The position numbers and the translations under genes were made by a program. The notes beneath the pieces are model-generated. The model searched no databases and had not been told where the DNA came from. It saw only the letters and a program-made list of their open reading frames with translations. A DNA stretch of 64,000 bases from Parcubacteria group bacterium Gr01-1014_31 (GTDB lineage: Bacteria; Patescibacteriota; Patescibacteriia; Buchananbacterales; GWA2-38-13): contig VMFR01000002.1 of the NCBI GenBank assembly GCA_007376135.1, positions 28,870 to 92,869 of the forward strand, given 5' to 3'. Numbering within the stretch: position 1 is the stretch's first letter; each line of letters starts with the position of its first letter. This document shows, piece by piece, positions 6,549 through 61,437 of this stretch.

Positions 6549-7211
6549 ATGGTGCGCGCAGTGCTTTTCGATCTGGATGGCGTGCTGATGGAAACGGAGC
6601 TTCAAACATTCCACTTCTACCAGGACGAACTCAAGCGGCGGTACGGCATCACGCTGTCCAATGACGCGTTCCGTTTTAAAGCTGGGCGAAAATCGGCCGA
6701 TTTCTGGTGTGACGCACTAAATGACGAACAGCGCCGGACAGTGGACACCACCGCGCTCACCAGGTATAAACGCGAACATTTCGGCGCCACGCCATCGCGC
6801 TACATCAGCCGAGTGCAGGGCGGTCCAGAACTCCTGGCAGTGCTGCGGCAAACTGGGGTTCCGCTAGCGCTCGCCTCACAAAATGAACCTTTCATGATCA
6901 ACGCAGCGGTCGACTGGCTGGGGATTCGGGATTACTTTTCCGTTATTCTCACGATCGCCGATATCAAACGATTGAAACCTGACCCCGAAATTTACCTCCT
7001 GGCCGCGGACCGGTTGAACGTACAGCCGACTGACTGTGTCGTCATCGAAGACTCACGGGACGGCGTCGGAGCGGCGAAGAACGCCGGGATGTATTGTATT
7101 GCCATTCGCCACCCCTACACACCGTTTGGACACCTCGACCGGGCCGACCGCATCGTCGAGCGTTTCACGGAACTGACCCCGACGCTGATCGCTGGAACAC
7201 TCTCACGATAA
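6549..7211 (+). CDS. HAD-IA family hydrolase (beta-phosphoglucomutase-like phosphatase)
   Basis: Motif I FDLDGVL at the N-terminus and motif IV EDSRDGVGAAKNAG. Confidence 0.75.
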   Translation: MVRAVLFDLDGVLMETELQTFHFYQDELKRRYGITLSNDAFRFKAGRKSADFWCDALNDEQRRTVDTTALTRYKREHFGATPSRYISRVQGGPELLAVLRQTGVPLALASQNEPFMINAAVDWLGIRDYFSVILTIADIKRLKPDPEIYLLAADRLNVQPTDCVVIEDSRDGVGAAKNAGMYCIAIRHPYTPFGHLDRADRIVERFTELTPTLIAGTLSR

Positions 7212-9994: not shown

Positions 9995-10340
9995 AGGGGA
10001 AAAAATGAGTATCCGTATTCTACCCCAGGCCCCCCGAACGGACAAGGGGGATAAATGAATTACCGCCCCGCAACCCCGCAGTCGTGGGCAGGTCGGGGTG
10101 GTAGCACCCCCACCAACCCCAGCACCAATGGTGCGCCCAAGCTGTACGGTGGAGCGCTGCGCCGTCCAGGGGGAGGGGCTATTCGCCCCGCGCGCTCCAC
10201 CACGGCTGGACAACGACGAGCGATCAGCAAGGTTTGGAGGAAGGAGAACGGCACCATTGGCGCGGGGTTATTTTCCGTACCTCTCCTCGATTCATCCCGT
10301 CCCGCGGCTGCGGGACGGGTATTCTGGAGGAAGGAAAATA

Positions 10341-10366
10341 AAAACCCCCGCGGAACGCGGGGGAGG
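10341..10366 (-). terminator. rho-independent terminator of the 23S-5S operon
   Basis: Minus-strand CCTCCCCCGCGTTCCGCGGGGGTTTTTATTTT lies directly 3' of the 5S gene. Confidence 0.7.
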
Positions 10367-10548: not shown

Positions 10549-13974
<3,426 letters not shown>

Positions 13975-21180: not shown

Positions 21181-21289
21181 TTGGCTAAATAAATATTCAC
21201 TGCATCCACCAACATTTGCCGAGGGGGAGAGTCAAACTCCCATGGTCTTGCGACCGCTAGCTCCTAAAGCTAACTTGCTCTCTCACCTT

Positions 21290-21373
21290 TGCCCCCGAGA
21301 GGACTCGAACCTCTAAGGGATTGCTCCCACCAGGTCCTAAGCCTGGCGCGTATACCAGTTCCGCCACGGGGGC
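21290..21373 (-). tRNA. tRNA-Leu (anticodon TAG), long variable arm
   Basis: Minus-strand GCCCCCGTGGCGGAACTGGTA...CCAGGCTTAGGACCTGG...GGTGGGAGCAATCCCTTAGAGGTTCGAGTCCTCTCGGGGGCA. Acceptor 7/7 bp, T-loop TTCGAGT, anticodon loop CTTAGGA. Confidence 0.85.
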
Positions 21374-21498
21374 AAAGGTGAGAGGGTGAATCTACCAATT
21401 TCGCCACTCCGGCACGGCATTCCCATATTGGCTGGGGCGACTGCGGTTGTCAATAAATCGGCTGCAAGGTCGTGGTAGAATATAATCGTGTGCTAACA

Positions 21499-30693: not shown

Positions 30694-30711
30694 ACCCACA
30701 CAAACTAACAT

Positions 30712-30850
30712 TTCCTTCGGGGCAGGGTGCGGTCCGACGAACGTCGGACCAATTCCCAATCGGTGGTACAGCCCACGAGGTCCGATGTACATCGGACCAT
30801 GATCCGGTGAAACTCCGGAGCCGACGGTACAGTCCGGATGAAAGAAGGAA
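30712..30850 (+). ncRNA. FMN riboswitch (RFN element)
   Basis: GGGGCAGGGTG...ATTCCCAATCGGTGGTACAGCCCACGAG...GATCCGGTGAAACTCCGGAGCCGACGGTACAGTCCGGATGAAAGAAGGAA. P1 stem TTCCTTC/GAAGGAA. Followed by a terminator and two near-identical GGGGAGG hairpins before the ribE RBS. Confidence 0.85.
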
Positions 30851-30889
30851 TCTTTCCTGATTTTTCGTAGTTTCAGGAAACCGACGAAT

Positions 30890-52029: not shown

Positions 52030-55000
52030 ATGACCCCGAAGCGATCCGTGTCCGACGCCGTGGACACGAGTACCCCGTCCATGACGGGGGTAGCCGCCGT
52101 GACGGAACCGTCGCCGTTCCGTTATCACCCCGAGGGGATGAAATTCCCCCGCTACTTCACCAAAGCGGGCGTGGATCCGTACGCCGTGGTGCACTACGAC
52201 CGCCGGTCCAGCGTCATCCGCGAAACCGACGGGCGCGAGGTCTTCCGCATGGATGACGTGGAGGTGCCCAGCTCCTGGAGCCAGGTGGCAACCGACATTT
52301 TGGCGCAAAAGTACTTCCGCAAGACCGGGGTACCCCAACTGGACGAAAATGGCGCAGTGGTGCGAAATCCTGACGGTTCCGCCGTGTTAGGACCGGAACG
52401 GTCGGTCAAGCAGGTGGTCCACCGACTTGCCGGCTGCTGGCGGTACTGGGGCGAGCGCTACGGGTACTTTGCGACCGCCGAGGACGCCCAGGCCTTCTAC
52501 GATGAAGTGGTCTTCATGCTGCTGACCCAGCGGGCGGCCCCGAATTCCCCGCAGTGGTTCAACACCGGCCTGCACTGGGCCTACCAGATCAATAGCAAGG
52601 CGCAGGGCCACTGGTACATCGACCCCGACACTGGGAAAATGACGCGCGCCGTCTCGGCCTACGAACACCCGCAGCCGCACGCCTGCTTCATTCAGGCCGT
52701 CAACGACGACCTGGTCAACGAGGGCGGCATCATGGACCTGTGGGTCCGCGAAGCGCGGCTGTTCAAGTACGGCTCGGGCACCGGCACCAACTTCTCTTCC
52801 CTGCGCGGCAGCGGCGAGCGGCTGTCGGGCGGCGGCAAGTCGTCAGGGCTGAAGTCGTGGCTCAAGATCGGCGACGCCGCGGCGGCCGGCATCAAGTCGG
52901 GCGGCACGACGCGCCGCGCGGCCAAGATGGTGATCCTGGACATCGACCACCCCGACGTGGAGTGGTTCATCAATTGGAAAGCGCGGGAGGAAAAGAAGGT
53001 GGCCGCGATGGTCGCCGCCGGCTACGACTCGGCCTACGAGGGTGAAGCCTACCAGACCGTCTCGGGTCAGAACTCCAACAACTCCGTCCGGCTGCCCAAC
53101 AACTTCATCAAGGCGGTCCTCAATGACCAACCCTGGGAGCTCAAAGGCCGCATCGACGCCTCGGCCAACCGCACCATCAAGGCCCGCGAGCTGTGGGACC
53201 AGGTCGCCAACGCCGCCTGGGCGTGCGCCGACCCGGGCGTGCAATTTGACACCACCATCAACGAATGGGGCACCTGCCCGCAATCGGGCAAGATCCGCGC
53301 CACCAACCCCTGCTCAGAATACGTATTCCTGGACAACACCGCCTGCAACCTGGCCTCCATCAACCTGGCGCTCTTCTTTGACACCCAGACCAAGACCTTC
53401 GACGTGCCCGGCTTCACCTACGCCGCACGGCTGTGGACCACCATTCTGGAAATTTCGGTCCTGATGTCCGCCTCCCCCAGCCGCGAGATCGCCGACGGCA
53501 CCTACAACTTCCGGACGCTGGGCCTGGGCTACGCCAACCTCGGCGCCGTCCTGATGACGTCGGGCATCCCCTACGACAGTCCGGAGGCGCTGGGCTTCGC
53601 CGGCGCGGTCACCGCGCTGATGACGGGCGTCTCCTACCGGACGTCGGCGGAAATGGCGAAGTTCCTCGGCACCTTCCCCGAATTCACGAAGAACCGCGGC
53701 GACATGCTGCGGGTCATGCGCAACCACCGCCGCGCCGCCTACAACGCCAAAGCGGAGGAATATGAAGGCCTGACGGTCAGCCCGATGGGCATTGAGCCGG
53801 CCTACGCGCCCACCTACCTCCTCACGGCCGCCCGCAAATCGTGGGACGAAGCCATCTCCTGGGGCGAACAGCACGGCTACCGCAACGCCCAGACCACGCT
53901 GCTGGCGCCGACGGGCACCATCGGCCTCCTGATGGACTGCGCCACGACCGGCGTCGAGCCGGACTTCGCGCTGGTCAAATTCAAGAAACTGGCCGGTGGC
54001 GGCTACTTTAAGATCGTCAACGAAGCGGTGCCGGTGGCGATTTCCGCGCTGGGTTACACAGAGAGCCAGATCACGGACATCACCGCCTACCTGCGCGGCC
54101 GCGGCACGCTCGTCGGCGCGCCGCACGTCAACCCGCTAGCGCTCAAAGCCAAGGGGCTGACGGACGCCGAGATCGCGAAAGTGGAAACGGCGCTGAAGGC
54201 CGCGTTCGCGCTGGAATTCGTCTTCACGGCCACCACGCTGTCGGACGCGACGCTCCAACGCCTGGGCTTCACCCCGGCCGAGTACGCAGCGCCGGGCTTC
54301 AACCTGCTGTCCCGCCTGGGCTTCACTTCCGAGCAGCTCCAGGAAGCCAACGAGTACGTCTGCGGCACGATGACTATCGAAGGCGCCCCGCACCTGAAGG
54401 CCGAGCACGAACCCGTCTTTGACTGCGCCAACAAGTGCGGCGCGAAGGGCAAGCGCTACATCCACTTCATGGGCCACGTGCGGATGCTGGCGGCGGTACA
54501 GCCGTTCCTGTCGGGCTCCATCTCCAAAACCATCAACATGCCGAATGATGCGACCGTCGCCGAAGTGGAGCAGGTCTACATGGAGTCCTGGCGGCTGTGC
54601 CTGAAATGCCTGTCCATCTACCGCGACGGCTGCAAGCTGTCCCAGCCGCTGGCCACCTCCGCCAAGGGCACGGGCAAGAAGTCCGAGGCCGAGACGGCGG
54701 CTGCCCCCGCGCCAGTCGCACCGGCGGTGAACACCCCCGTTGCCGCTCCCCTCGCCGCTCCGGTCGCAACGGTCGCGGAACTGCCCAAATCGTCTGGCCG
54801 CCGGGTGTTCCTGCATGGGGAAAAGCGCGAACTGCCCTACAAGCGCAGCGGCATCACGGTGGAAGCCGAGATCACCGGCCACAAAGTTTTCCTGCGCACC
54901 GGCGAATACCCCGACGGCAGCCTGGGCGAGATATTCATTGACATGTACAAGGAGGGTGCCGCCTACCGCAGCATCATGAACAGCTTCGCCGTGGCGGTTT

Positions 55001-55473
55001 CCACCGCACTGAAGTATGGCGTACCGCTGGAAAAACTCATCACCAAATTCACCTTCACGCGCTTTGAGCCGTCCGGCCCGACCTCACACCCCAACGTCAA
55101 ATTCTGCACGTCGGTGCTGGACTTCATCTTCCGCATACTAGCCATGGAGTACCTCGGCCGCACCGACCTGGTGCAGGTGCCGCCGACGGGCGTGCAGAAG
55201 AACCGCGCCGCACAGCTGGCGGCGCTCGCCGTCCACCAGCAGGCACTGGAATTACCGTCCACGCCGACGGCCACCGTTGCGGAAGCGGCCGTGAGCAGCG
55301 ACCCGGGGTCGGCCGCCAGCATGGACGTGAAGACCGACACCAGCCAGATCAATTCGTTCCTGGGCCAGATGATGGGCGACGCGCCGCTGTGCGACACCTG
55401 CGGCCACGTCATGATCCGCAACGCCTCCTGCTACAAGTGCCTTAACTGCGGCAGCACGAGCGGATGTAGTTGA
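52030..55473 (+). CDS. nrdJ: class II (adenosylcobalamin-dependent) ribonucleoside-diphosphate/triphosphate reductase, long form with C-terminal Zn ribbon
   Basis: Active-site NPCSEY and ten-stranded barrel motifs. C-terminal CDTCGHVMIRNASCYKCLNCG zinc finger. 1147 aa. An Ala/Pro linker accounts for the extra length; no intein blocks found. Confidence 0.85.
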   Translation: MTPKRSVSDAVDTSTPSMTGVAAVTEPSPFRYHPEGMKFPRYFTKAGVDPYAVVHYDRRSSVIRETDGREVFRMDDVEVPSSWSQVATDILAQKYFRKTGVPQLDENGAVVRNPDGSAVLGPERSVKQVVHRLAGCWRYWGERYGYFATAEDAQAFYDEVVFMLLTQRAAPNSPQWFNTGLHWAYQINSKAQGHWYIDPDTGKMTRAVSAYEHPQPHACFIQAVNDDLVNEGGIMDLWVREARLFKYGSGTGTNFSSLRGSGERLSGGGKSSGLKSWLKIGDAAAAGIKSGGTTRRAAKMVILDIDHPDVEWFINWKAREEKKVAAMVAAGYDSAYEGEAYQTVSGQNSNNSVRLPNNFIKAVLNDQPWELKGRIDASANRTIKARELWDQVANAAWACADPGVQFDTTINEWGTCPQSGKIRATNPCSEYVFLDNTACNLASINLALFFDTQTKTFDVPGFTYAARLWTTILEISVLMSASPSREIADGTYNFRTLGLGYANLGAVLMTSGIPYDSPEALGFAGAVTALMTGVSYRTSAEMAKFLGTFPEFTKNRGDMLRVMRNHRRAAYNAKAEEYEGLTVSPMGIEPAYAPTYLLTAARKSWDEAISWGEQHGYRNAQTTLLAPTGTIGLLMDCATTGVEPDFALVKFKKLAGGGYFKIVNEAVPVAISALGYTESQITDITAYLRGRGTLVGAPHVNPLALKAKGLTDAEIAKVETALKAAFALEFVFTATTLSDATLQRLGFTPAEYAAPGFNLLSRLGFTSEQLQEANEYVCGTMTIEGAPHLKAEHEPVFDCANKCGAKGKRYIHFMGHVRMLAAVQPFLSGSISKTINMPNDATVAEVEQVYMESWRLCLKCLSIYRDGCKLSQPLATSAKGTGKKSEAETAAAPAPVAPAVNTPVAAPLAAPVATVAELPKSSGRRVFLHGEKRELPYKRSGITVEAEITGHKVFLRTGEYPDGSLGEIFIDMYKEGAAYRSIMNSFAVAVSTALKYGVPLEKLITKFTFTRFEPSGPTSHPNVKFCTSVLDFIFRILAMEYLGRTDLVQVPPTGVQKNRAAQLAALAVHQQALELPSTPTATVAEAAVSSDPGSAASMDVKTDTSQINSFLGQMMGDAPLCDTCGHVMIRNASCYKCLNCGSTSGCS

Positions 55474-55560
55474 CCTCGCCCGAAGGGCGGGGTCATCCCG
55501 AGCGAAGTCCGCCGGAGGCGGACGACGTCGAGGGATTTCTTCCATTGACGAGCGGGCGCC

Positions 55561-55591
55561 GAGGGGCGGGATGGTTTCCGCCCCTCTTTTT
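55561..55591 (+). terminator. rho-independent terminator after nrdJ
   Basis: GAGGGGCGGGATGGTTTCCGCCCCTCTTTTT. Confidence 0.6.
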
Positions 55592-55943
55592 GTTCCCCCG
55601 CCGCCGCAACAAGTGAGGGCCGATGTACATCGGCCCGACCGCCAGCGAGGTGAGCGGGAAACAACCCCGCACTAATTTTGCCGCTCACCATACACCTCAC
55701 TCGAATTTGAGATGATCGAAACAGGCGCTTGTGGAGCGCGTGGGCGAATAGCCCTCCCTGTGCTGGACGCAGCGCTCCACCGCGAATACTCTCGCGACAT
55801 TAGTGCGGGGTGTTTAACCACAAAACGTCGCGCTTGCAGCGGGTTTCGTCCCTGTGCTACCGTAGCCCATTGGCGGCGGCACGTTGCTTTCGCCCGCATC
55901 CCGACGCTTCGGGACAGCCCTTTCAGAAAGGACGTTGTCCGCG

Positions 55944-56147
55944 ATGAACTCGGACACCATCATCAAGGCCTGCCTGGTCGTCTACGTCATCTCCGGCGTC
56001 GTGCTGGCGGTGCTGGGGGTCACCCAGGAGGCGGGCAAGACCGGCTTGGCCGGCGGCATCACCCATCTGGTCATGTTCGTCGTGCTGGTCGCAGCCTTCG
56101 TCCATTCCGAACTCAAGGAGCGCCGCAACAAGCTGCGGTCCTACTGA
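55944..56147 (+). CDS. small 2-TM membrane protein
   Basis: ATG at 55944 (MNSDTIIKACLVVYVISGVVLAVLGV...). A terminator hairpin GCCACCCTTCCCCAAGGGTGGCTTCTTTTT follows at 56180..56209. Confidence 0.45.
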   Translation: MNSDTIIKACLVVYVISGVVLAVLGVTQEAGKTGLAGGITHLVMFVVLVAAFVHSELKERRNKLRSY

Positions 56148-56208
56148 CCGCCGATGCCCGTTCCGGCACTTTTGCTGACGCCACCCTTCCCCAAGGGTGG
56201 CTTCTTTT

Positions 56209-56467
56209 TAATCTCCTACCTCCGCAGCAAGGGACACAGCTCTTTCGCGGAAAGGGCTGTGGACCGCCAGCGAGGAAGGTAGGAGATTAACCCGCCAAAA
56301 GTCATGGAGATGATGTTGCTTTTAGATTAAAGTGAGCCGAAGGCGGTAGACCCCGTTAGACAATGGATGAGTGTAGTTTGTTGTGGTTTGCATGGCCGCC
56401 ACATTGAGATGAAGCCGCAAGAAAAAAGGGATTTGACCATTGTCTAACGGGGTAGACCGCGCCGAAG
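56209..56467. repeat. left long inverted repeat: hairpin module plus MITE-like element (core 56344..56460, 22-bp TIRs)
   Basis: Hairpin TAATCTCCTACCT...AGGTAGGAGATTA, then TTAACCCGCC spacer. The MITE-like core is GGTAGACCCCGTTAGACAATGG [73 nt] CCATTGTCTAACGGGGTAGACC. Confidence 0.7.
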
Positions 56468-56624
56468 AAACGTGTATAGGTACTTCCGAGTTCGCGGACT
56501 GTCGGCGGGTTAGTTCCTCTGAAACATAGAATGGCCGGAGGTGTTGCGGAGGCTGGAAATAAAAAGAACCCCGGCATGGAAATGCACGGGGTCCTGCGGA
56601 ATGAACGGGGACGGCTCCGAATGC

Positions 56625-56939
56625 CTAGGCCGGCTCGGGGGTCGGCGGCGCGGGTTCGACGGACGGCGGGATCGGCGGCATCTCGGTGATGAGCACCGCT
56701 TTGTCCCCGCGCTTCTTGTCGCGCCAACGCTGCCAAATCTCCTTGGCGTGGCCGATCTTGGTGCCCTTGAGCACCATCCAGCACGGGCCGCCGCGGCACA
56801 CGGGGTTGGGAATGGTTTCCACCTCGTGGCAGCCGGCGGGGAACACCCCGCCGGGCAGTGAGGCGGCCTTCTTGGCGTCGCCCTCGCCCTGCTCGACGAC
56901 CTGCAGCACGGGCAGGTCAACCTTCGAGGTAATGAACAT
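56625..56939 (-). CDS. hypothetical Cys/His-containing small protein (cargo gene 2)
   Basis: AGGAGG RBS 7 nt upstream. MFITSKVDLPVLQVV...PAGCHEVETIPNPVCRGGPCWMV...IGHAKEIWQRWRDKKRGDK, with a Pro-rich tail. Confidence 0.45.
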   Translation of the reverse strand: MFITSKVDLPVLQVVEQGEGDAKKAASLPGGVFPAGCHEVETIPNPVCRGGPCWMVLKGTKIGHAKEIWQRWRDKKRGDKAVLITEMPPIPPSVEPAPPTPEPA

Positions 56940-56988
56940 AGCAAAACCTCCTAACGGTTGTGGTTGATGGTAGTGTTGGCGCTGCCGG

Positions 56989-58029
56989 CTATAGTCGCAG
57001 CGCCTCGACATCCCGCTGGTCGCGCAGCTGGTAGTCCAGCCCGACATGGTCCAGAACGCGGCACAGTCCGCGCAACGCGACACCCATACCCAAAGCCCCG
57101 CTGACGCCGCCGAACCGCCCCCCGCCCAGCAGGTGGGGCTCCAGCACGACCGCCGGCTCGCCCAGCGCCCGTTCGTAGAACGCCGCGAACTGCCCGGCCA
57201 CGTCCGACAGGATGGGCTCGGGCCGCGCCAGACCCCGGGTGCCGTCAGGCGGCACGTAGTGGGACAGCGCGTCCTCGTCTACTGGTCCGAAGCCCTCGGG
57301 CCGCGGACCATCGTAGAACTTGGCGTGGAACTCGGCCACGCTGCCCTCCATTAGACGCCACTCCGCCCACGGGTCCAGGCCCTGCGAGTAGACGTTGCCC
57401 CAGTCCCAGATGCAGCAGAGCGTCCGCCGCCGGTGGATATCCCACAACCTCCCCGCGATCGCCATGCACGCCGCGCCGCGGTTCCCGACCAAGTTGGCCT
57501 CCACCTCCAAGAGCGGGAGAATACGCTTATTGATGAAGATGTCGACGATCGGCGCCAGCCGCTCCACGGCCTGCTCGATGTACCCGACCTGGCCACTGTC
57601 TGGCGGCGGGTAGAATGAGAACAGGCGAACGGCCTTCACGTTGAGCTTCTCGGCGACCGCGGCAGCCGGGTGGACGACCTCGTCGAGGTAACGCGCGGGT
57701 TCGAAGTACGGCACGCTGGTGCCGTCAGGGACATCCCGCAGCTTGACCTTGCCGATGCCCGAACCCAGACAGTGGGCGGCAAGGCCGTAGGCGCGCTGGG
57801 CGTCAAGGACGGTGGCGAGCTGCGCATCGGTGAGTTTGCCGACGTTCACGATGTCGGGCTTGTCCTGCGTGCCGAAGTTGAACCACCGCGGCACCCACCA
57901 CGACAAACCCAGGGCCGACCCGACGGCCAACTGGTACTCGACGGACGCGATCACCTGCGCGCCGTCCTGGGGCTGCGTACACTCATCCAGGAATGCCGCC
58001 AGCCGAACCTCACGGCCTCTCTGTCGCAT
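56989..58029 (-). CDS. xylose-isomerase-like TIM-barrel sugar-phosphate isomerase/epimerase family protein (cargo gene 1)
   Basis: AAGGAGG RBS. ATG at 58029 (MRQRGREVRLAAF...). Family assignment is tentative (LLEVEAN, EPH acidic/His positions). The listed 35-codon N-terminal extension was rejected. Confidence 0.45.
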   Translation of the reverse strand: MRQRGREVRLAAFLDECTQPQDGAQVIASVEYQLAVGSALGLSWWVPRWFNFGTQDKPDIVNVGKLTDAQLATVLDAQRAYGLAAHCLGSGIGKVKLRDVPDGTSVPYFEPARYLDEVVHPAAAVAEKLNVKAVRLFSFYPPPDSGQVGYIEQAVERLAPIVDIFINKRILPLLEVEANLVGNRGAACMAIAGRLWDIHRRRTLCCIWDWGNVYSQGLDPWAEWRLMEGSVAEFHAKFYDGPRPEGFGPVDEDALSHYVPPDGTRGLARPEPILSDVAGQFAAFYERALGEPAVVLEPHLLGGGRFGGVSGALGMGVALRGLCRVLDHVGLDYQLRDQRDVEALRL

Positions 58030-58388
58030 GACAAATACCTCCTTGTCAAAGGGCCTTAGAAAACGAGGGAAAAAGACGAAAGAGCGAAAACGTACCATAC
58101 AAAATTTCCGGGAGAATGTCAACGAGCACCACAAAACAAGTACTCACATCTTTTCTTGACAAGAATCTATAAATACACTAGTATTTATTCCTTAACATAA
58201 ACTATTGCTCCGCTCTTTCTCCACCCCGCTCCTTCACGACTTTTGACCCAGGGAATGCCTTTCTACGTCAGTAGGAGTTTCACATTCCTTGGGTCTTTTC
58301 TTGTTGCCTGCATTGCACTTAGTAATGGATACAAACCCGCCTCCAGCCCACGAACTGGGTAATGAGTATTTGCATGTTGGTACGGCGC

Positions 58389-58621
58389 GGTCTACCCCGT
58401 TAGACAATGGTCAAACCCCTTTTTTCTTTCTTCTTCATCCCAATGTGGTGGACTGCGCAAACCACAACGAACTATATTCGTCCATTGTCTAACGGGGTCT
58501 ACCGCCTGCGGCTCGTTCAAACAATAACCAAATTCTCCGTCCGACTTTCGGCGGGTTAACCTCACACTCGCCTCGCTGCGGTCGTAAACTCCCTTGCTGT
58601 GGCGGCGTGAGGTTAAAAAAT
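58389..58621. repeat. right long inverted repeat: MITE-like element (core 58389..58503) plus hairpin module, inverse orientation of 56209..56467
   Basis: GGTCTACCCCGTTAGACAATGG [71 nt] CCATTGTCTAACGGGGTCTACC. Its interior is the reverse complement of the left copy's interior. Then ...GGCGGGTTAACCTCACAC...GTGAGGTTAA hairpin, homologous (inverted) to the left hairpin module. Confidence 0.7.
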
Positions 58622-58858
58622 AGGCCTGCCCCTGGAAAGGAAGCAGGCCCGGCGCAGAGGGGAGGAATTACCCATTTCCCCTTGGCATCCGCGCAATGAC
58701 CGTACCGTTCTCCGGCACACGGTCATGGCGCAACGATGATGGTAGATAATCGCGCACATTAAGTCAAATCATCAATTGACGGATGGTTGCCGGCATGCTG
58801 CAATACCAGCGGCGTCCGCGCGTCCTGGGCACGGAGCACGGTGCACTGAGCACAACAT

Positions 58859-59425
58859 ATGCGTATCTACACGAAAACCGGCGATGATGGCACCACGGGG
58901 ATGTTCGGCGCCGGCCGCATTCCCAAACACCACCCCCGCGTGGCCGCCAACGGCGACGTGGATGAGCTCAACGCCTGGCTGGGACTGTGCCGGGCGCGCG
59001 TGCAGAACTCCGCTGCGGCGCCGCTCGCCGCGCTGCTAGCCCGCATCCAAAACACGCTGTTTTCCGTCGGGGCGCAGATCACGACGCCCCAGCAGTCGGC
59101 CGCCTACGCCAATATCCCTAAAGTGGTAGCTGCCGACATCACGTGGCTGGAAGCCGCCATTGACCGGCTCACCGTGGACCTGCCGGAGTTGACCCAGTTC
59201 ATCCTGCCGGGCGGGAGCCTCGCTGCATCCATGCTGCACGTCGCGCGCACCGTGTGTCGTCGCGCCGAACGGTCGGTGGCCGCGGCCCGCGCCGCCGACA
59301 TTCCGCTGGACCCGCTGGTGCTGCAATACCTCAACCGCCTATCGGACCTGCTGTTCACGATGGCGCGCTGGGCCAATCACTGTGAGCAAACACCTGAAAT
59401 TCCTTGGCAAAAGGGTAAGGGGTAA
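58859..59425 (+). CDS. ATP:cob(I)alamin adenosyltransferase, PduO-type
   Basis: Canonical MRIYTKTGDDGTTG N-terminus. 188 aa. Confidence 0.85.
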   Translation: MRIYTKTGDDGTTGMFGAGRIPKHHPRVAANGDVDELNAWLGLCRARVQNSAAAPLAALLARIQNTLFSVGAQITTPQQSAAYANIPKVVAADITWLEAAIDRLTVDLPELTQFILPGGSLAASMLHVARTVCRRAERSVAAARAADIPLDPLVLQYLNRLSDLLFTMARWANHCEQTPEIPWQKGKG

Positions 59426-59595
59426 TGAGGCACAGCCCGCCAAACACGAAGAAGCACGAAGCAAGAATTAAAAAGTAAGGGATCAGCCGCCGCAGTAATT
59501 ATCCCTTGCACTCGTAATGGCACGACAGGAACCGTTATGAGCGCGCGAAGCGGTTTCGCGCTTTCATCCATCGGCTCCTTACAGAAAGGGACATC

Positions 59596-59880
59596 GTGCC
59601 CCCACTCCACCTGGACGACACCCAGCAATGGTTTGTCGCCAACTTCCGCCGCGACCCCCAGGTCGCCAACCTTCGGTTGCGGGATGGGAACTGTCCCGAC
59701 CCGCCGCTCTCCCGCGAGCAGGTCCAGGCGTGGGATACCCACGCCAAGAGCTGCCGGCTGTGCGAATCCATGGTGGAATGCCACCACTTCAGCATTCGCC
59801 GCGCCGAGAACCGCCGCAAAAAGCTTGCGGCCGTCCCGCCTCCGCCCCGCGAACCGTCGTGGGAAGATATGGTGGAGTAA
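59596..59880 (+). CDS. possible small Cys-rich protein
   Basis: GTG start. CxxC...C-HH cluster KSCRLCESMVECHHF. Weak RBS, so uncertain. Confidence 0.25.
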   Translation: MPPLHLDDTQQWFVANFRRDPQVANLRLRDGNCPDPPLSREQVQAWDTHAKSCRLCESMVECHHFSIRRAENRRKKLAAVPPPPREPSWEDMVE

Positions 59881-59933
59881 CTCCGCCATACCACTCCCGC
59901 TCCGCTCTCTCGACCCCACCTGGGGTCTTTTTT

Positions 59934-60389
59934 TTATCCTCCGATATTCCTGCGCGGTATCTTACCGTGCTGATTCAACCTAGAAAGTTTGGAGATTGAA
60001 ATTGAACGCTGCCCATTCTTCTGCATTTTTCCCGCATTTTCCCAAGCAAGCCTACCTGAACCGTTATAAATTTCAATGGCCTCTTTACCATCCTTTAACT
60101 CGTTCAAATCAAGAACCAAGAGTAGGTTGGGCTCACTCCGCAGACCTACTGAGCGACCAAATGTGGCTTTAATTTGGATTTTTTCGCCATTGACCATTTC
60201 CGCATCATGTACGGGAGTACCGACCGGCAAAAGCTCAAGCTCGTACATATAATGGGCGACAACCTCTCCGATACTCCCCACTAGAAGCCCATCGGGCGAA
60301 AAACGTCGCCCAATAAACCTACTTTCGAGACGTCTTACAATCTGAAACAGCTCCTGTATCGCACTGGATACTGCGGAATGTTCAGACAT
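59934..60389 (-). CDS. hypothetical protein, low-GC ORFan co-transcribed after aguA
   Basis: AAAGGGG RBS 5 nt upstream. ATG lies 23 nt after the aguA stop. 151 aa, no recognisable motifs. GC ~45 %. Confidence 0.45.
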   Translation of the reverse strand: MSEHSAVSSAIQELFQIVRRLESRFIGRRFSPDGLLVGSIGEVVAHYMYELELLPVGTPVHDAEMVNGEKIQIKATFGRSVGLRSEPNLLLVLDLNELKDGKEAIEIYNGSGRLAWENAGKMQKNGQRSISISKLSRLNQHGKIPRRNIGG

Positions 60390-60411
60390 AACCCCTTTGA
60401 TTCTTGCTTCT

Positions 60412-61437
60412 TTATTCTAGCTTCTCCGGCCGCGGTTGCTGCTGCGTGCTGCAGTGAATAGTGCCAAAGCCCCACACCAGGTCCACACAGTCCACGCCCA
60501 CCACGCGCCGAGTCGGAAAATAACGCTGCAGGATTGCCATTGCGTCGGCATCCTGCGGGCAGTGGAACGTCGGCATGAGCACCACGGTATTGCCGATGTA
60601 GAAATTCGCGTAGCTGGCCGGCAGGCGCGTGTTGTCATAAATGACCGGAGCCGGCACGGGCAGAGGGACTATTGCTAGGGGCTTTCCGTCCTGGTCGCGC
60701 ATTCTTTGCAAGTCACGGTAATTCTGCTGCAAAATCGCGTAATCCTCATCAGCCGGGTCATCAATCAGCGGGCAGACAACGGTGGACGGATTCACGAACC
60801 GCGCCAGGTCATCAATGTGGCCGTCGGTGTCGTCCCCGGCAATCCCCTCCTTCAGCCACAGAATGTTGGTAACACCCAGGTGTTCGCGCAAGTACCCTTC
60901 TATCTGGTCGCGGTTGAACTGCGGGTTTCTGTTCTCGTTCAGCAGGCAGGACTCGGTGGTGAGCAGCGTGCCTTTGCCGTTCACTTCAATGGAGCCACCC
61001 TCCAATATCATTTGCGGTGTAACCAATGGCAACGACAGCAGCTCGGAAATCTTTTCCGGTACGGCGTCATCCAGGTTTGTTGGCCCCCACTTTTTGCCGT
61101 TGCCGTTGTACCCCCAGTCCAGGATGGTCAAGCCCTCGGGGCCATGGACGAACATCGGGCCGTGGTCGCGCGACCACGACGCGTTGGTTTCGATCTGGAA
61201 AAAATCCACCTGCCGCAGCGGCACGTTGCCGTCTTGCAAAAGCTCCCGCGCCTCGCGCTCCATCTCGGCATCATTAATACACAAAAAGACGCGCTCGCTT
61301 TGTGTGAGCGCCTTGATGATTTGCACGTAGGTGTTGGGAATGGGGCCAAACTTTCCCGGCCAGTGCTTGCGGTTGTGCGGCCAGGCCAGCCACGTGCCGT
61401 CGTGCGGCTCCCATTCAGCGGGTAGGCGATACAACAT
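60412..61437 (-). CDS. aguA: agmatine deiminase
   Basis: MLYRLPAEWEPHDGTWLAWPH N-terminus. A Cys-containing C-terminal GTIHCSTQQ-type motif. Confidence 0.85.
   Translation of the reverse strand: MLYRLPAEWEPHDGTWLAWPHNRKHWPGKFGPIPNTYVQIIKALTQSERVFLCINDAEMEREARELLQDGNVPLRQVDFFQIETNASWSRDHGPMFVHGPEGLTILDWGYNGNGKKWGPTNLDDAVPEKISELLSLPLVTPQMILEGGSIEVNGKGTLLTTESCLLNENRNPQFNRDQIEGYLREHLGVTNILWLKEGIAGDDTDGHIDDLARFVNPSTVVCPLIDDPADEDYAILQQNYRDLQRMRDQDGKPLAIVPLPVPAPVIYDNTRLPASYANFYIGNTVVLMPTFHCPQDADAMAILQRYFPTRRVVGVDCVDLVWGFGTIHCSTQQQPRPEKLE

Follow-up and report, generated by a model that had tools for sequence, protein, structure and literature searches.

The segment between nrdJ and pduO in Parcubacteria group bacterium Gr01-1014_31, lying within a 64 000-nucleotide stretch of contig VMFR01000002.1 (the window, analysed as a whole), holds two genes enclosed by a pair of inverted repeats and resembles a composite transposon. 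We estimate at roughly three in four the probability that it is none and that the locus consists of two relics of a miniature inverted-repeat transposable element (MITE) beside a resident operon. The phenomenon is real but ordinary: a new MITE family made two insertions in older inverted spacer repeats, and the segment between them is probably not a mobile or invertible cassette. The original prediction, a two-gene cassette bounded by ~250-bp inverted repeats, was correct as to the repeats, which are real, while the cassette reading fails on synteny and on the separate target-site duplications (TSDs) described below. Here, MITE1 denotes the 98/99-bp element, MITE2 a second MITE-like family and H an 80–100-nt hairpin module. 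The two proteins encoded in the segment have exact matches in TSC76467.1 (346 aa) and TSC76466.1 (104 aa) of the metagenome-assembled genome (MAG) Gr01-1014_31, and the same DNA is carried by the ENA contig ERZ27284378:k139_518337. About 73 kb of the source genome was covered, comprising the window and 9.3 kb of contig sequence upstream of it.

An inverted-repeat search followed by alignment of the two arms recovered the predicted pair of ~115-bp palindromic elements (56344–56460 and 58388–58505), with interiors in opposite orientation. Their ends had been described as perfect 22-bp terminal inverted repeats (TIRs). Over 24 nt the match is 92%, and the ends are more accurately a 14-bp TIR (CCGTTAGACAATGG/CCATTGTCTAACGG), perfect in both window copies, plus an 8-bp direct repeat; the outer 8 bp seem inverted because the target, GGTNNACC, is nearly palindromic. 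On the forward strand the left copy reads GGTAGACC-CCGTTAGACAATGG…CCATTGTCTAACGG-GGTAGACC and the right copy GGTCTACC-…-GGTCTACC. Inspection for TSDs thus gave a perfect direct repeat (8/8) at each copy, at 56345–56352 (outer) and 56451–56458 (inner) on the left and at 58389–58396 (inner) and 58496–58503 (outer) on the right. The 8-mer GGTAGACC/GGTCTACC occurs at these four positions only in the 64-kb window. Between the duplications lie 98 bp on the left (56353–56450) and 99 bp on the right (58397–58495; 87% identical to the left copy), both intergenic and with no coding capacity. The 17-mer CCATTGTCTAACGGGGT has four exact occurrences in the window, where chance alone would give 0.14, and the inner 12 nt of the TIR are invariant across nine aligned copies of MITE1. 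The left copy folds as DNA with a z score of −7.6, and the whole left arm, taken as single-stranded DNA, with a z score of −9.0 relative to shuffled sequences.

The 115-bp element is a genuine MITE: its MITE-like character, proposed from the sequence, is borne out by the TIRs, the 8-bp TSDs, empty sites in two relatives and copies in other genomes. Bacterial MITEs are defined as non-coding elements of 50–800 bp with TIRs of at least 10–15 bp and TSDs of 2–10 bp that are mobilized in trans (PMC11602168). MITE1 is like them in size, in being non-coding, in its TIRs, 8-bp TSD, intergenic siting and empty sites, and in a family resemblance limited to the ends. It differs in its strongly specific target, GGTAGACC, which is similar to the D-loop of tRNA-Leu, in its low copy number in the DNA covered, in its host, a reduced genome of the candidate phyla radiation (CPR), and in the lack of a parent insertion sequence (IS) in the collections scanned. 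Examples of bacterial MITEs include the Correia elements of Neisseria and the pneumococcal RUP. An integron attC site was also considered and rejected: the motifs GTTAGAC … GTCTAAC, on both strands, have the reverse polarity of RYYYAAC/GTTRRRY, a TSD is present and there is no cassette array.

The most informative relative, L004 (GCA_030648715.1), encodes a TIM-barrel protein 75% identical to that of the window. In L004 and L005, pduO, the TIM-barrel gene, the small gene, the membrane open reading frame (ORF) and nrdJ follow one another in the same order and orientation as in the window, and neither genome has the MITEs there. At the position of the right copy, L004 reads …GAGCCGCAGGC GGTAGACC GCGCCGTACC…, with a single copy of the target. 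A second empty site is present in L021–L024 (small protein 77% identical to that of the window), in a unit directly after the terminator of the small gene; it reads …GAGCCGAAGGC GGTAGACC GCGCCGAAGG… and has flanks as in the left arm, with one copy of the 8-mer in L022. The common form is …GGC GGTAGACC GCGCC…, so that the search for empty sites yielded clean ones in two relatives, one for each arm.

These sites bear directly on the proposal that the locus is a composite transposon or a decayed insertion, in which MITE-bearing arms carried the 1.9-kb two-gene segment into the nrdJ–pduO spacer. Two inverted copies of one MITE do enclose two genes, the relatives differ in which genes lie between pduO and nrdJ (L006 has no TIM-barrel gene) and the closest TIM-barrel homologues outside the clade are only ~40% identical. 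However, the TSDs match MITE by MITE, the signature of two insertions in situ, and at the outermost edges of the segment as a whole the forward strand reads GGTAGACC … GGTCTACC, two reverse complements that form no direct repeat. The cargo occupies the same place in L004 without MITEs, and the arms stripped of their MITEs are orthologous to MITE-less units in relatives. Composite transposons of the Tn10/Tn5 type consist of two IS copies bracketing cargo. The locus is like them in having two inverted copies of one mobile element around two genes and unlike them in three respects: a separate TSD around each end element, synteny of the cargo in a relative devoid of those elements, and the lack of a transposase. 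The original prediction had already remarked that neither a transposase nor an invertase is present, and no recombinase was found among the genes scanned, from nrdJ to agmatine deiminase. It had also named orthologous loci with conserved synteny in a single orientation as evidence that would tell against a cassette, and this is essentially what the relatives display. We regard transport of the segment by its arms as very improbable.

Global alignment places the arms at ~56194–56566 and ~58290–58636, or ~320–370 nt each, longer than the ~250 bp first proposed since homology also runs inward beyond the MITE. On the outer side it extends to the terminator T-runs (56202 and 58620). On the inner side it extends to GGCGGGTT (~56512 and ~58340) and, in weaker form, as far as ~56566 and ~58290. 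Identity between the arms is 100% over the TIRs and the 8 nt outside them, 81% in the MITE interior and 87% over the whole MITE, falling to 56% in the H module (71% ignoring gaps) and 53–63% in the spacers, or 55–71% overall outside the MITE. Each arm without its MITE appears to be a unit laid out as a terminator T-run, an H hairpin, …AACCCGCC, an apex hairpin (GCGG-TAGA-CCGC), GGCGGGTT… and an inverted H-like module. With the MITE removed, the right unit is 98.3% identical to its counterpart in L004 (3/173 nt differ) and the left unit 82.9% identical to that in L022, compared with 70.8% between the left and right units. The units are older than the MITE, as each is closer to its MITE-less counterpart than to the other unit. 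The two MITEs differ by 13%, although the right unit is only 3/173 nt from L004, so that the right MITE must have arrived recently and from a source other than the left copy. MITE1 therefore probably entered two old paralogous repeat units independently. That both units were struck would require nothing more than target specificity, because the 8-mer is absent elsewhere in the 64 kb.

The same comparison makes it unlikely that a MITE-bearing arm was duplicated in inverted orientation, or that the MITE was pasted from arm to arm by gene conversion. The arms do share the insertion site, the TSD and the orientation of the MITE within the unit, and 11 nt on one side and 7 nt on the other are conserved. 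Nevertheless, the units predate the MITE, and the right arm was not copied recently from the left, given how far the two MITEs differ. Moreover, each flank retains variants specific to its own locus to within 5 nt of the TSD (GCCGAAGGC versus GCCGCAGGC), which disfavours conversion of a whole arm.

MITE1 is not confined to this locus. A scan for paired TIRs in the GTDB species genomes, a collection that does not contain the source genome, gave seven elements of 80–100 bp in three MAGs: the Patescibacteria MAG STB_141, another labelled Gammaproteobacteria and one of Saprospiraceae whose outer TIR bases differ. These other MAGs have two or three copies each, on different contigs. Among Joint Genome Institute (JGI) metagenomes, a 17-mer scan identified 14 loci, five of them with further paired copies. 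The expectation that the element would recur elsewhere was thus confirmed, and the possibility that it has no other copies anywhere, which would have spoken against a MITE, does not apply. Family members have their ends in common and unrelated interiors; eleven copies of this kind with direct 8-bp flanks come from Patescibacteria, other MAGs and metagenomes. Their 8-bp flanks are mostly direct repeats near GGTA(N)ACC, as in the pairs GGTAAACT/GGTAAACT, GGTAGACC/GGTAGACA, GGTAAACC/GGTAAAGC and GGTAGGCC/GGTGGACC; GGTAGAC[C/A] and GGTAAA[C/G]C also occur. Apart from the window copies, the direct repeat matches at 8/8 positions in L014 and at 5–7/8 in most others, and one copy, in L025, has no recognizable 8-bp repeat. 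Unpaired TIR matches in the JGI data fall inside unrelated genes or are solo ends without a transposase ORF, and the viral collection gave no TIR match. Our literature search for the TIR sequence, for MITEs in Patescibacteria and for MITEs in tRNA D-loops found no description of any of these.

Several observations weigh against two independent insertions of a transposing MITE. Both copies are oriented alike relative to their own unit, which independent insertion would produce with a probability of 0.5 and which is also expected from gene conversion confined to the MITE. The L022 unit is inverted with respect to the small gene when compared with the left unit of the window, and its orthology is consequently judged from similarity and not from position on both sides. 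Just two copies of MITE1 are present in the ~73 kb of the source genome, both at this locus, so that a source copy has to be postulated. At L038, the copy at 181–300 has 8-bp flanks that are inverted (GGTCTACC … GGTAGACC), giving a perfect 22-bp palindromic end. Finally, no autonomous IS with MITE1 TIRs was encountered at the seven genome loci, at the 14 metagenome loci or in the viral collection, all searched with exact 17-mers only.

On balance, we favour the following course of events for the two-insertion reading. MITE1, at 98–99 bp, would generate 8-bp target duplications with a preference for GGTA(N)ACC, the transposase presumably being supplied in trans from another locus. Each unit would have received its own insertion, in both cases at its apex and into the same 8-mer, GGTAGACC. 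The units being mutually inverted, the outcome would be the appearance of a 250–370-bp long inverted repeat around a 'cassette', although the segment itself would never have moved. The only structural effect of the MITEs would be to provide perfect inverted matches of 33 and 27 nt that could occasionally support inversion.

This last effect is the basis of a further alternative, in which the operon is a switch, programmed or frequently used, that is turned over by homologous recombination between its inverted arms. Without the MITEs, the arms have no exact inverted match longer than 10 nt, compared with the 33 and 27 nt seen with them, and the flipped palindromic unit downstream of the small gene in L022 suggests that flips mediated by short inverted repeats may occur in the lineage. 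Against this, the operon has its own promoter and terminator, so that inversion would change little; a single orientation is found in every assembly and relative; no recombinase gene lies among the immediately adjacent genes scanned; and the 87% identity of the arms extends over ~115 nt only, being far lower elsewhere. The Logan unitig L002 stops within the MITEs, as a k-mer assembly of an inverted repeat would, and carries no orientation information. A dedicated switch is accordingly quite unlikely, while occasional inversion by recombination between the arms, as judged from these matches, is possible.

The target preference links MITE1 to tRNA genes. At two other Patescibacteria loci, L016 (7280–7410) and L038 (120–300), a disrupted tRNA-Leu has MITE1 in its D-loop (…GGAACTGGTAG-ACAC…) and an intact tRNA-Leu beside it; these insertions identify the preferred target (GGTAGAC) as a motif of the tRNA-Leu D-loop. 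In L038, a small MITE2-like element lies a few nucleotides away in the same D-loop. The window itself holds a tRNA-Leu(TAG) (21289–21374) within a 113-nt insert (21278–21390) with 13-nt inverted repeats, CCCTCTCACCTTT/AAAGGTGAGAGAG (region 21215–21472, reverse strand). Deleting the insert produces a second, outer tRNA-Leu(TAG) of 86 nt that is recognized by ARAGORN, and the same holds for L038. Nested tRNA-Leu(CAG) genes are found at L038 300–540 and L016 7270–7620, at different positions in the outer tRNA, and in L016 the insert with the tRNA-Leu is bounded by inverted repeats (CCCCACACCTTTTGCCC) similar to the ends of MITE2. From this arrangement, the nested tRNA-Leu insert may be a mini-element that replaces the gene that it disrupts. 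A tRNA-like origin was considered for the apex of the H units, where GGCGG-TAGAC-CGCGCC resembles GGCGGAACTGGTATACGCGCC of the window tRNA-Leu; the likeness is suggestive and too short to claim. It is conceivable, if doubtful, that the arms belong to a lineage-specific network of small elements around tRNA-Leu, with the H units either functional and under selection or domesticated relics serving as landing pads, and with a self-replacing mobile system that targets tRNA genes in CPR bacteria; the inverted repeats around the replacement tRNA-Leu copies resemble the MITE2/H ends.

The H modules that surround MITE1 are themselves a repeat family. In the left arm, the H module (56204–56303, forward strand; covariance-model score 90.2 bits, with stem covariation) has a 14-bp stem, TTAATCTCCTACCT/AGGTAGGAGATTAA, and the conserved loops CCGCAGCAAGGGA and GACCGCCAGCGAGG followed by TTAACCCGCCAAAAGTC; its outer edge is the terminator hairpin and T-run of the membrane ORF (56180–56201, forward strand), found by a terminator scan. 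In the right arm, the module (58543–58620, reverse strand; 99.4 bits) has the stem TTAACCTCAC/GTGAGGTTAA and is identical to its L004 orthologue. The outer edge here is a terminator-like hairpin with a T-run (58622–58650, reverse strand; terminator scan), which is kept in L004 and has no gene upstream on its own strand. The outboard hairpins were therefore correctly predicted: the left stem is complementary at 14/14 positions and both modules share the core GACCGC(C)AGCGAGG…TTAACCCGCC. The inner part of the left unit is a weaker, inverted H-like module (…TTTCAGAGGAACTAACCCGCCGACAGTCC; 56497–56566, reverse strand; 20.8 bits, E = 0.002) that reads from the terminator of the small gene and is homologous to L004 7063–7132. 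That of the right unit (AAACCCGCCTCCAGCCCACGAACTGGG…; 58330–58388), delimited by arm alignment, is 94% identical to L004 4846–4912. The inner unit ends, AACCCGCCRAAAGTC/GACTKTCGGCGGGTT, appear by inspection to resemble those of MITE2.

A third H copy follows directly on the nrdJ terminator (55561–55586), at 55586–55678 on the forward strand (70.1 bits, E = 1.7e-18; also found by nhmmer), and abuts a MITE2 (55655–55820) with the ends ACCCCGCACTAATTTTGC/GCGACATTAGTGCGGGGT, recognized as an inverted repeat and by nhmmer matches in relatives. The MITE2 family is ~160 bp in length, has the ends CCCCGCAyyAATTTTGC and usually adjoins H; further copies found with nhmmer are at 10118–10276 in the window and at 6895–7054 and 3077–3234 in L004, whose segment 4911–4951 also belongs to the family. 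Immediately after the 5S rRNA gene comes a weak H copy (10255–10345, reverse strand; 16.9 bits) and then MITE2, the order gene end, H, MITE being the same as after nrdJ. The 9.3 kb of contig upstream of the window contains no further copy of MITE1, MITE2 or H.

A covariance model of H built from five copies and searched in the window and relatives gave 12 matches, corresponding to 11 distinct copies; that at 55466–55509 of the window, which overlaps the 3′ end of nrdJ, looks spurious. The ~73 kb covered holds four or five copies. All those whose context was examined follow gene ends, in the window those of nrdJ, the membrane ORF, the small gene and the 5S rRNA gene, and in L004 that of agmatine deiminase. 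The spacers are mosaics of nested small repeats, in a style like that of repetitive extragenic palindromes (REPs) and bacterial interspersed mosaic elements (BIMEs). The H units are similar to REP/BIME and REPIN elements in being extragenic and palindromic, in following gene ends, in forming inverted doublets and in serving as landing sites for a small mobile element. They differ in being 80–100-nt hairpins in units of 180–250 nt, in numbering four or five per ~73 kb and in having loop motifs unlike those of REPs. Enterobacterial REPs are targets of IS1397 and ISKpn1. No gene of the RAYT type was seen, no search for RAYT having been made.

These features leave open a possibility, which we hold tentatively and which is compatible with the MITE explanation, that the arms, and the H units above all, are functional structured elements with the MITEs as secondary passengers; bidirectional terminator or insulator modules, protein-binding hairpins or a small RNA would be candidate functions. 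Stem sequence varies from copy to copy while complementarity is kept: 91% of the cells of the stem alignment are paired, 13/20 pairs show a compensatory change, none of 500 shuffles reached this level and slid controls were far lower, with the caveat that the alignment had been produced by fitting to the model. Two loop motifs, CCGCARCAAGGGA and GACCGCCAGCGAGG, are likewise conserved, and every H copy begins at a terminator T-run. The right spacer unit (58330–58690 versus L004 4680–4912) is 97–100% identical to its counterpart, reaching 100% over 58638–58520, whereas synonymous divergence (dS) in the neighbouring genes is 0.17–0.73 and the adjacent spacer is 65–70% identical; this near-identity would reflect selection or else recombination, in the latter case very recent and over a short tract. 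On the other side, the left unit shows no excess conservation relative to L022, L004 lacks H after nrdJ, where it is thus dispensable, copies downstream of terminators should be little transcribed, and covariation between two arms can arise in a palindromic mobile element without any RNA function. The suggestion that the repeats might map to a conserved structured RNA found no counterpart in Rfam 15, which gave no match at gathering score in the region (the whole window being scanned) and, at E values of up to 5, only a chance-level match to Ms_IGR-2.

The two enclosed genes are likely to form a resident, vertically inherited operon of the nrdJ–pduO neighbourhood in this Parcubacteria (CPR) lineage. 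The first (56989–58029, reverse strand) encodes the 346-aa protein TSC76467.1, a xylose-isomerase-like TIM-barrel protein. The original assignment to TIM-barrel sugar-phosphate isomerases/epimerases stands by way of its hundreds of ~40%-identity homologues, which carry that annotation, include many from Planctomycetota and match PF01261, but there is no direct match in Pfam, NCBIfam or the PDB. The second gene (56625–56939, reverse strand) encodes the 104-aa protein, for which the ORF list and four homologues provide the evidence. For both proteins, searches of Pfam (E up to 10), NCBIfam (E up to 1) and PDB sequences gave no match. The description of the 104-aa protein as a Cys/His protein does not survive comparison with the homologues: Cys37 and Cys53 are replaced in all four and Cys48 in one, while His38 and His64, its only two histidines, and two tryptophans are invariant. 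An AlphaFold2 model based on four sequences is mostly β-strand, with a predicted local distance difference test score (pLDDT) of 51.6, a low confidence too poor for a fold search.

Both genes have the AGGAGG ribosome-binding sites that were predicted, 7–8 nt upstream of ATG. The AT-rich promoter region said to be internal and shared is in fact upstream of the first gene (58030–58330) and not intergenic. A promoter-like site found by a promoter scan, TTGACA-17-TATGGT (58094–58122, reverse strand), would serve the operon, and its −35 box, TTGACA, is present at the matching position in L004; the same scan gave a divergent site, TTGACA-17-TAGTAT (58156–58184, forward strand), that points into the right arm. 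A terminator-like hairpin and T-run (56567–56596, reverse strand), 92% identical in L004 and present also in L021 and L022, marks the operon end. Beyond it lies the 67-aa membrane ORF (55944–56147, forward strand), with 83.6% amino-acid identity to its L004 counterpart. Elsewhere, synteny and orientation are conserved in L012, which retains pduO and the TIM-barrel gene, and in L006. In L006–L011, which include a more distant relative, the small gene lies between pduO and nrdJ and the TIM-barrel gene is lacking. Between the window and L004, dS is 0.70 for the TIM-barrel gene, 0.51 for the small gene, 0.73 for agmatine deiminase and 0.55 for the CN-hydrolase, compared with 0.23 for nrdJ, 0.23 for pduO and 0.17 for the membrane ORF. 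The cargo is thus no outlier; what stands out is the unusual similarity of its B12-related neighbours.

Synonymous divergence across 52030–61437 of the window is correspondingly a mosaic of ~0.2 (nrdJ, membrane ORF, pduO) and 0.5–0.7 (the rest). The 104-aa protein stays beside pduO and nrdJ in every relative found, including L006–L011 and L020–L024, even where the TIM-barrel gene is missing, and this gene context hints at a role tied to B12-dependent functions. The spacer between agmatine deiminase and pduO (59934–60389 in the window; 5302–8350 in L006) is variable: in the window it holds a DUF6998 gene of low GC content (46%), in L006 genes for a ParB-like protein, a large serine recombinase and an MNT/HEPN toxin–antitoxin pair, and in L004 neither set. 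From its gene content it looks like an integration hot spot. Two further features of the window may be recorded. The 23S rRNA gene (10550–13971, reverse strand) is 3422 nt long, against a model of 2925 nt, and contains a group I intron (11584–11814), in keeping with a CPR bacterium, and several further insertions. An FMN riboswitch (30709–30853, 97 bits) has no relation to the MITE locus.

The locus carries a caution for annotation, in that a site-specific MITE that has entered pre-existing inverted repeats twice can mimic a composite transposon; a relative without the MITE and inspection of the TSDs decide the question. For the organism, an undescribed MITE family with a clean insertion polymorphism in a Parcubacteria genome, its filled site lying inside a unit 98% identical to the empty counterpart, points to recent transposition in a small genome. 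The terminator-linked, covarying hairpin repeats and the possible tRNA-Leu-targeting elements may prove to be the more interesting biology.

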